DNA from: a virus
UHGV virus genome: UHGV-0074610
Length of the DNA: 19,386 nucleotides
Strand: one strand, 5' to 3'
Shown piece by piece: positions 50-649 of this stretch. A program made the position numbers and the translations under genes. Each line of letters starts with the position of its first letter. The stretch's first letter is position 1. Under the pieces are notes generated by a model. It searched no databases and was not told where the DNA came from. It saw only the letters and a program-made list of their open reading frames with translations.

Positions 50-370
50 TCAGATCGCCGGGTTATCGTCTTCGGTGGCCCGGTTAATCAGATGCGTCAG
101 AACTCCCTTTACATCCACCTCATCCAGTACCTCACCTTCAAGAACTTCACCATCTACCGTTATCAGCGCATCACCTCTAGGTTTGGCAAAGTGACAACCA
201 CCTGAGTACGAAATCAGGTATGTGCTTTCTGGCGATGGCTTCATACCATTCTCAATCACCGCTAGTCCATGCGAAGTCTCAATCACCAGGCTGTTAGCCG
301 TGACGCCGCAGATAGTCTCTATGGTGAGCGCGCGTTCAATGTAGTCTTTGGCTGGACTTGGGAACCCCAT
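50..370 (-). CDS. UmuD'-like peptidase S24-fold protein, divergent (106 aa from ATG at 368-370; maximal ORF extends to 421)
   Basis: Minus-strand ORF 50..421 in the track. Product contains GFPSPAKDY, matching the conserved autocleavage-site region of UmuD/MucA (CG/AG-FPSPA), plus segments resembling the S24 core (SLVIETSHG, PSPESTYLISYSGG, GDALITVD) and C-terminus (DVKGVLTHLI). GGAGG lies 8 nt upstream of the second in-frame ATG (368-370); the first ATG (419-421) has no SD. Family call from recalled motifs only. Confidence 0.5.
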   Translation of the reverse strand: MGFPSPAKDYIERALTIETICGVTANSLVIETSHGLAVIENGMKPSPESTYLISYSGGCHFAKPRGDALITVDGEVLEGEVLDEVDVKGVLTHLINRATEDDNPAI

Positions 371-460
371 ATCAAAGCCCTCCGTTCGGGTTGTACATGA
401 ACCACGTCTTGTTCTCGCCATGGTCAGGGGTGATGTCTTTGAAGCAGGTGGTGTATCTGG

Positions 461-610
461 CTATCCAAAGGTTCGCCTCTTCCATGCTGAAGTGCAGTTG
501 ACCTTTAGTAGTTCCTGAACAAAATCAGCGGTTTTCACAATTCTGCGGCCTGACCTTTCATGCACAATAGAGGCCCTAAATGCAATTTTGATATCTGAAC
601 GACGCGGCAT
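461..610 (-). CDS. small SOS-box-associated hypothetical protein (49 aa)
   Basis: Track ORF is 461..673, but the in-frame ATG at 608-610 is preceded by GGGAGGTG with 7-nt spacing and the LexA box lies inside the longer ORF, so the 49-aa product MPRRSDIKIAF... is preferred. No family recognised. Confidence 0.45.
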   Translation of the reverse strand: MPRRSDIKIAFRASIVHERSGRRIVKTADFVQELLKVNCTSAWKRRTFG

Positions 611-629
611 AGTTTCACCTCCCAATAAA

Positions 630-649
630 TGCTGTATGTACATACAGTG
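630..649. promoter_or_regulatory. LexA (SOS) box, CTGT-N8-ACAG palindrome
   Basis: Sequence tgCTGTATGTACATACAGtg at 630-649 matches the enterobacterial LexA consensus TACTGTATATATATACAGTA at the CTGTAT/ATACAG arms with an AT-rich spacer. On the minus strand it directly follows a plausible -35 TTGATC / 16 nt / -10 TACACT and sits about 22 nt upstream of the ATG at 610. Confidence 0.6.

Follow-up and report, generated by a model that had tools for sequence, protein, structure and literature searches.

A shortened UmuD'/HumD-like protein, predicted to be born processed and catalytically inert, in an accessory unit under a predicted LexA box at a prophage end

UmuD' of Escherichia coli (PDB 1UMU, 1I4V and 8GMT) is made by RecA-mediated cleavage. 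HumD of phage P1, gp26 of N15 and the protein called 'UmuD' in HK639 are homologues of UmuD' that are borne by phages, pre-processed and encoded by monocistronic genes, under LexA boxes and without umuC. HumD, in work attributed to McLenigan et al. in 1999, is reportedly UmuD'-sized, restores mutagenesis and binds both UmuC and RecA filaments. The GenBank record of P1 notes that HumD 'functionally complements E. coli UmuD'', and it annotates a LexA site 20 nucleotides (nt) upstream of humD, so that control by a LexA box is annotated as such for this phage. In this work we have analysed a stretch of 19,386 nt from the viral genome UHGV-0074610 (the window, by which we mean the whole of this DNA), whose minus strand encodes, within the first few hundred positions, a protein of 106 amino acids (aa) of the same layout: phage-borne, made directly in its processed form, and without umuC. 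The kind is thus already known (temperate phages encode pre-processed UmuD' proteins of the HumD type under SOS control), and this direct precedent had been overlooked in an earlier note on the same DNA. The protein of the window belongs to a shorter and uncharacterised subfamily, and literature searches returned no study of this subfamily or of the 79-aa protein encoded beside it in part of the loci. The features of the locus are collected in Table 1.

The 106-aa protein begins MGFPSPAKDY, so that its initial methionine stands directly before the glycine at which UmuD and MucA are cut, and it would be born processed, as the earlier note had recognised. Judged from its sequence, it belongs to the UmuD'/HumD lineage in shortened form. 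It matches the PHROGs family phrog_3469, 'UmuD-like protein', over its full length (E 6e-42, residues 1-105 on a 106-position profile); with hhalign, a profile built from 22 members can be aligned from end to end with a genuine protein of the HumD family (probability 97.6%, E 4.7e-12); and when 35 sequences of the short family are made into a profile and compared with one of UmuD and HumD, the probability is 99.6% (hhalign, E 1e-23), residues 2-99 of the window protein corresponding to UmuD 25-139. A longer frame of 123 aa (50-421), proposed by the lister of open reading frames (ORFs), was rejected as the gene, since it is an in-frame upstream extension and the relatives all start with M-GFPSPA after a Shine-Dalgarno (SD) sequence. 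The HumD family (NCBIfam NF051876, to which a phiKO2 protein also belongs) has in common with the short subfamily the M-GFPSPAxDY start and the acidic DDxPxI tail, and the record of phage mEp390 names its own gene 'UmuD-like protein, similar to HumD'.

The alignment to UmuD' and HumD is colinear, and the reordered or partly duplicated core segments that had been proposed for the protein were not recovered. UmuD residues 58-68 (GDSMIDGGISD), which contain Ser60, fall into an 11-residue gap, which amounts to a deletion of the serine loop. The absence of the catalytic serine had already been claimed, and it stands, but it had been reached through a wrong alignment: the SGGCH of the window protein (residues 56-60), thought to lie opposite SGDSM, is placed by hhalign on UmuD VDGEF (90-94). 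The residue aligned with Lys97 is K63, in a column occupied by K, R, I or V across the family, so the Ser-Lys dyad of peptidase S24 is missing; beyond the strand that carries Lys97, the segment is shorter than in UmuD' and poorly aligned. Also, there is no self-cleavage site, that is, no Ala-Gly or Cys-Gly with an N-terminal segment preceding it: the protein starts Met-Gly-Phe-Pro at the P1' glycine, as do all its relatives. It is therefore predicted to be catalytically inert. As far as can be read from the alignments, the N-terminal arm, the S24 beta-core, the C-terminal strand and a HumD-type tail have been kept, and the 11-residue loop of the catalytic serine has been lost. Hardly any variation is seen in the arm GFPSPAxDY(V/I)E, and conservation extends to the C-terminal strand (V-x-V-x-G-V-V-T); the born-processed N-terminus and the DDxPxI tail are both seen in an alignment of 57 sequences. 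This acidic tail is common to P1 HumD, N15 gp26 and other long forms and is not found in UmuD, while a motif specific to the short subfamily, (I/V)T-x-DGE-x-(I/L)-EG, is conserved in place of the corresponding UmuD segment. The median isoelectric point (pI) of the family is 4.5, the same as that of UmuD'.

These traits set the protein apart from each of its better known relatives. Compared with E. coli UmuD', it lacks the Ser60 loop, a conserved Lys97 and a umuC in its operon, and has the additional C-terminal tail. What separates it from the C-terminal domains of LexA and lambda CI is the lack of a DNA-binding domain at the N-terminus, of a cleavage site, of a Ser-Lys dyad and of a match to PF00717. 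The closest comparison is with the long HumD forms, in which the dyad is not conserved either (the serine column holds S, T, A or C, and the lysine column K, R, M or W). P1 HumD keeps its serine (ADSH) and its lysine (RIKRY), but N15 gp26 and many other long forms do not, and dyad loss would therefore be general in the born-processed lineage, the short subfamily being its extreme. Members of the latter are about 20 residues shorter than HumD (104-109 against 125-130 aa), have lost the loop of UmuD 58-68 and are shortened past Lys97.

Table 1. Coordinates of the accessory unit and of its neighbours in the window.
Feature	Positions	Strand	Remarks
106-aa UmuD'/HumD-like S24-fold protein, predicted pre-processed and catalytically inert (phrog_3469)	50..370	-	SD GGAGGG 383-378
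Pseudogene of a 79-aa winged-helix-fold protein (phrog_3893)	372..610	-	1-nt deletion near 495/494; SD GGGAGGTG 623-616; original stop TGA at 374-372
49-aa ORF, N-terminal part of the pseudogene	461..610	-	premature TAG 463-461
LexA (SOS) box, putative, CTGTATGTACATACAG	632..647	.	sole CTGT-N8-ACAG in the window; kept in related loci
Putative sigma-70 promoter	646..673	-	-35 TTGATC 673-668, 16-nt spacer, -10 TACACT 651-646; read from the sequence
gtrA	726..1088		divergent from the unit
gtrB	1085..2005		divergent from the unit
GtrII-type glucosyltransferase	2005..3432		divergent from the unit
522-aa ORF	3465..5033	+	no Pfam or PADLOC match

The segment 50-673 of the minus strand appears to be an accessory unit under the control of a LexA box. 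Within positions 1-730, this strand reads, in order, TTGATC, spacer, TACACT, CTGTATGTACATACAG (647-632), the SD sequence GGGAGGTG and the ATG at 610. The box had been proposed before as a near-consensus site overlapping a promoter. It proves to be a perfect 16-bp palindrome, a perfect LexA box being defined here as the palindrome CTGT-N8-ACAG, and it occurs once in the 19.4-kb window against some 0.28 occurrences expected by chance on both strands. The -10 element overlaps its left arm, and 37 nt separate it from the first ATG. The TTGATC of the -35 element is kept in relatives. On the other side, 79 nt lie between the box and the start codon of the divergent gtrA, in an intergenic region (611-725) of just 115 bp that contains a single GATC, the one within the -35 element. 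In P1 and in mEp390, the equivalent box is common to the unit and to a divergent gene (lxr and dinI, respectively).

The box recurs in related loci. Of 133 such loci, drawn from genome and viral sets, about 90% have it in perfect form. Among nine relatives examined closely (seven phages and two E. coli prophages, covering E. coli, Klebsiella, Cronobacter, Erwinia and Pantoea), eight have a perfect box 29-41 nt upstream of the first ATG, the ninth, M171-1, having ...ATAG. Likewise, 47 of the 54 genome loci found with the profile of the 79-aa protein, in Enterobacteriaceae, Erwiniaceae and Yersiniaceae, have it 29-39 nt upstream, or 61 nt in one case. Searching viral sequences with the short-family profile gave 79 loci, 73 of them with a perfect box and two with none. 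In 44 of these the S24-like gene is monocistronic and its ATG follows the box at a distance of 34-44 nt, and in 33 the 79-aa gene lies between the two. In the genome loci, the downstream gene is either a short form or a long HumD form, and its product always starts with M-GF(P/A/V/Q)SPA; the long form is paired with the upstream 79-aa gene in M171-1 and in some 20 genome loci.

The S24-like gene itself is under purifying selection, and its product appears to be functional. Its ratio of non-synonymous to synonymous substitution rates (dN/dS) is 0.07, relatives are encoded by 435 viral-contig stretches, and a protein identical to that of the window is indexed in 65 blocks of an assembly collection. 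One could see in this locus a decaying, functionless remnant of a umuD-like gene left at the end of a prophage, given that the gene upstream is a pseudogene and that the catalytic residues are gone. HumD-like sequences do seem to break frequently in other phages: they are found as two-piece, frameshifted matches in P22-like Salmonella phages (BTP1, NC_042346.1 18586-18958; ST-35) and as unannotated C-terminal fragments in many Stx1 and Stx2 phages, which suggests frequent decay of this class of genes. However, a remnant would not show such a low dN/dS, nor a constant length of 104-109 aa with 23 invariant positions among proteins down to 48% identical, nor a LexA box and a Shine-Dalgarno sequence kept in hundreds of loci, and we give this explanation hardly any credence.

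What the protein might do is best approached from its arm. GFPSPAxDY(V/I)E remains near-invariant although cleavage is impossible here, and LexA and CI, which do cleave, lack the motif; this argues for a function specific to UmuD' that is exerted after cleavage. In the undamaged lysogen, LexA would repress the unit. Upon DNA damage, the protein would be made directly in its 'activated' form, making RecA-mediated cleavage unnecessary; it would then dimerise and engage the host's UmuC and/or RecA filaments in the place of UmuD', as P1 HumD is said to do, and the lysogen or the induced phage would be shifted towards translesion synthesis. The layout of the loci is in keeping with this proposal, the 44 monocistronic ones being organised like P1 humD, N15 gene 26 and the 'UmuD' gene of HK639. 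By analogy with HumD, we lean, if only slightly, towards such a role as an SOS-induced surrogate of UmuD' acting with host UmuC and/or RecA.

Several points weigh against the identity, the control or the role proposed. The S24 fold, suggested by the earlier note, finds support in the hhalign comparison with UmuD and HumD and in the structure model of the protein, whose best structural matches are S24 folds, but not in Pfam: a search at E <= 1 matched the 106-aa protein to no family, Peptidase_S24 (PF00717) included. The long HumD form matches PF00717 at 27.9 bits. The NCBIfam HumD model NF051876 gives the window protein 28.9 bits, to be compared with its cut-off of 120, and covers residues 1-25 only; the M171-1 protein scores 164.8 bits on it. 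The structure model is moderate, with a predicted local distance difference test (pLDDT) value of 69 and values under 50 in the N-terminal arm and in the tail. A consensus scanner left the promoter below its threshold, the hexamers matching at 8 of 12 positions, and its assignment is inferred. As for function, a HumD-like activity of the short subfamily is argued from homology, and two of its peculiarities, the loss of the 11-residue serine loop and the shorter segment past Lys97, could each have removed a contact with UmuC or with RecA. Even the gene of the reference protein, P1 humD, is dispensable for lytic growth (PMC10695390).

These same deletions leave room for a different reading, in which the inert mini-UmuD' would be a decoy or a poison subunit, occupying the groove of the RecA filament or forming heterodimers with host UmuD or UmuD'. 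It would thereby dampen or retime the cleavage of LexA, CI or UmuD after damage, or the activity of DNA polymerase V (Pol V), and would be a brake or a tuner of the SOS response and of prophage induction rather than a cofactor of Pol V. The large deletions relative to UmuD' may indeed have taken with them the functions needed in translesion synthesis, and the protein is pre-processed, catalytically dead by all appearances, and as acidic as UmuD'. In the alignment it retains the strands through which UmuD' reportedly dimerises. Also, in mEp390 and Eeyore the unit stands back-to-back with a dinI-like gene, which encodes a modulator of RecA filaments. Yet the strictly conserved UmuD-family arm is, as far as is known, unnecessary for mere dimerisation or docking on RecA, and HumD, the closest characterised relative, promotes mutagenesis instead of blocking it. 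We therefore regard a decoy of this kind as possible but unlikely. A broader form of the idea is somewhat more speculative still: the 104-109-aa subfamily would be a minimal non-cleavable S24 decoy, acting on RecA filaments or with proteins of the UmuD, LexA or CI type to retime the SOS response, mutagenesis or prophage induction, and the 79-aa protein would serve to target or regulate this decoy, as a new accessory factor.

As the earlier note had suggested, the gene could also encode an antirepressor induced by damage, the S24-like protein binding to the C-terminal domain of the CI-type repressor of the prophage and inactivating it. With the antirepressors known to be under LexA control (Tum of 186, GfoA and GfhA of the Gifsy phages, AntC of N15), the unit has in common that it is a small prophage gene with a LexA box and a predicted expression upon damage. 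But it has no sequence or profile similarity to them (PHROGs, Pfam and PADLOC were consulted), and the GFPSPAxDY signature is specific to UmuD and not CI-like. Its position differs as well, since it is found in phages with differing immunity regions, and lies beside attP among accessory genes, not in the immunity region. Moreover, a system of this type would be expected to go with a repressor that RecA does not cleave. In mEp390, the only phage checked, which carries the module, CI (gp37) is of the standard RecA-cleavable type, with an A/G site (VQA/GEW), GDSM and LKK, so that an antirepressor controlled by LexA would not be needed there. We hold this explanation to be improbable.

If the protein does act as HumD is reported to, prophage-borne surrogates of UmuD' induced by the SOS response could alter the mutation and the survival of lysogens exposed to DNA-damaging antibiotics, and so matter for how E. 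coli, Klebsiella and Enterobacter become resistant. The short subfamily would moreover represent a natural 'minimal UmuD'', in which the arm, the beta-core and the C-terminal strand remain under selection although self-cleavage is not needed, and the active-site loop is dispensable. As such, it could offer a direct handle for mapping the determinants of UmuC and RecA binding.

The gene upstream tells a different story. The earlier note had described a 49-aa protein as the first product of a two-gene module, but the 49-aa ORF is the N-terminal part of a broken conserved gene and not a genuine small protein. Its product matches positions 1-39 of the 79-position family phrog_3893 (PHROGs), and the remainder of the 79-aa gene is legible in another frame (372-485; ...EEANLWIARYTTCFKDITPDHGENKTWFMYNPNGGL). 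The lesion is found in all six independent contigs with an identical module, and 11 contigs have yielded database entries for exactly this 49-aa product, so it is not an error of assembly. As a consequence of the deletion, the truncated ORF shares its reading frame with the S24-like gene, a lone TAG (463-461) separating them (region 421-463, within 50-610 of the minus strand).

The intact 79-aa family is well represented. A profile search gave 641 homologues, every source name listed being from the Enterobacterales, and an exhaustive profile search among 1.84 billion representatives gave 186 relatives, nearly all of which stand alone with a length of about 79 aa or are fragments. No domain was found for it in Pfam, nothing meaningful came from a comparison of its profile with PDB sequences, and a fold search in BFVD returned a member of the family as its sole match. 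The AlphaFold model (pLDDT 86.5) has the topology helix-strand-strand-helix-helix-strand-strand, and predicts a winged-helix fold. In winged-helix proteins that bind DNA, the third helix is the recognition helix. Here the family has a median pI of 6.6 and a median net charge of 0, the third helix has a net charge of -2, and a basic helix or wing of the DNA-contacting type is not apparent, although charge is a weak test of DNA binding. With a near-neutral pI and an acidic third helix, DNA binding by the 79-aa protein is doubtful. In many Enterobacterales genomes (e.g. L001 3353-3592 and L002 3006-3245), NCBI gives it the product name 'DNA polymerase V', which looks like a misnomer borrowed from its neighbour, as we see no similarity to UmuC or UmuD; the protein is instead a small one of predicted winged-helix fold. 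The gene has also been overlooked in some phage records, and is unannotated in mEp390 (L004 3262-3483) and Eeyore (L003 2762-2983), where the annotation has, in its place, a short opposite-strand ORF or a portion of the dinI call.

Since the intact pair places a winged-helix gene before an S24 domain that starts at the cleavage-site glycine, in the order of LexA, it is tempting to see in it a split regulator: a non-covalent, 'pre-cleaved' DNA-binding protein. Acinetobacter UmuDAb would be a model for this, being homologous to UmuD but extended at its N-terminus by a repressor domain, and described as a LexA-like repressor that responds to DNA damage. The likeness lies in a UmuD-type S24 domain combined with an additional domain of the DNA-binding type. 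The pair is widespread in the Enterobacterales, and the stop codon of its first gene touches or overlaps the start codon of the second (offsets of -1 to +3), which suggests translational coupling; no conserved frameshift signal accompanies them. Unlike in UmuDAb, however, the additional domain is here separate, optional and a doubtful binder of DNA, and the S24-like protein has no catalytic residues. The 79-aa gene is missing from the 44 monocistronic viral loci, and it is frameshifted in the window while the S24-like gene is under purifying selection. Nor was a genuine fusion of the two found in the exhaustive profile search, where the long matches were frameshift chimeras, these being the 148-187-aa 'fusion' proteins P0200, P0247 and P0275 of other assemblies, comparable to the lesion seen here. 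A programmed frameshift or read-through joining the two genes was likewise rejected, the stop/start offset being variable among relatives. We consider a split regulator highly improbable. The same search also returned P0297, a protein of 544 aa with five tandem repeats (E 3e-7 with the 79-aa profile), which resembles repeat domains of the eukaryote type; the match is probably spurious and inflated by repetition.

The optional character of the 79-aa gene is also seen in a viral contig whose S24-like protein is 92% identical to that of the window. This contig agrees with the window on the gtrA side and in the -35 element and has a LexA box, but lacks the 79-aa gene cleanly. Three natural alleles thus exist in a single context (intact, frameshifted and absent), and what stays invariant is the SOS box with the pre-processed UmuD'-like gene. 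The 79-aa gene is an optional insert, which is consistent with its decay here, and the functional two-gene module that had been proposed does not hold for the window.

The unit is the terminal gene set of a prophage of the lambdoid type, which is integrated beside yodB and zinT. Past the start of the window, in the six contigs with the identical module, come yodB, zinT, msrQP, hiuH and hprRS. The absence of umuC from the window, claimed by the earlier note, was confirmed and extends to these flanks, where no polymerase gene is called in the roughly 760 bp downstream, before the host genes. An ordinary umuDC operon, with umuC directly downstream just outside the window and an intact Ser-Lys dyad, had been raised by the earlier note as an alternative and does not apply. 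Between the module and yodB lies a 3' fragment of a tRNA (...GGTTCAAATCCCCCTCTCTCCGCCA; L013 ~10440-10520), some 120-200 bp beyond position 1 of the window, and ARAGORN found no complete tRNA at this junction, which has the 3' fragment only; it is probably the att-site duplicate that marks the end of the prophage. With this fragment and host genes lying beyond the start of the window, the unit is the last of the prophage, and no umuC is to be found nearby.

A comparable position is seen in mEp390, Eeyore, phiES15, Midgardsormr38, vB_EhrS_59 and AH07, where the unit has attP-int on one side and, on the other, tail fibre or tailspike genes, which genes that modify the O-antigen often accompany. 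The back-to-back arrangement with the dinI-like gene in the first two is built around the same LexA box. In the window, a search of a phage collection for near-identical DNA matched gtrA and gtrB only, and the PADLOC defence models gave no match. The divergent gtrABC cluster, devoted to O-antigen glucosylation, is followed by the 522-aa ORF, a tailspike gene and tail genes; this ORF is conserved in the six contigs with the identical module and may be a further surface-modification or accessory gene.

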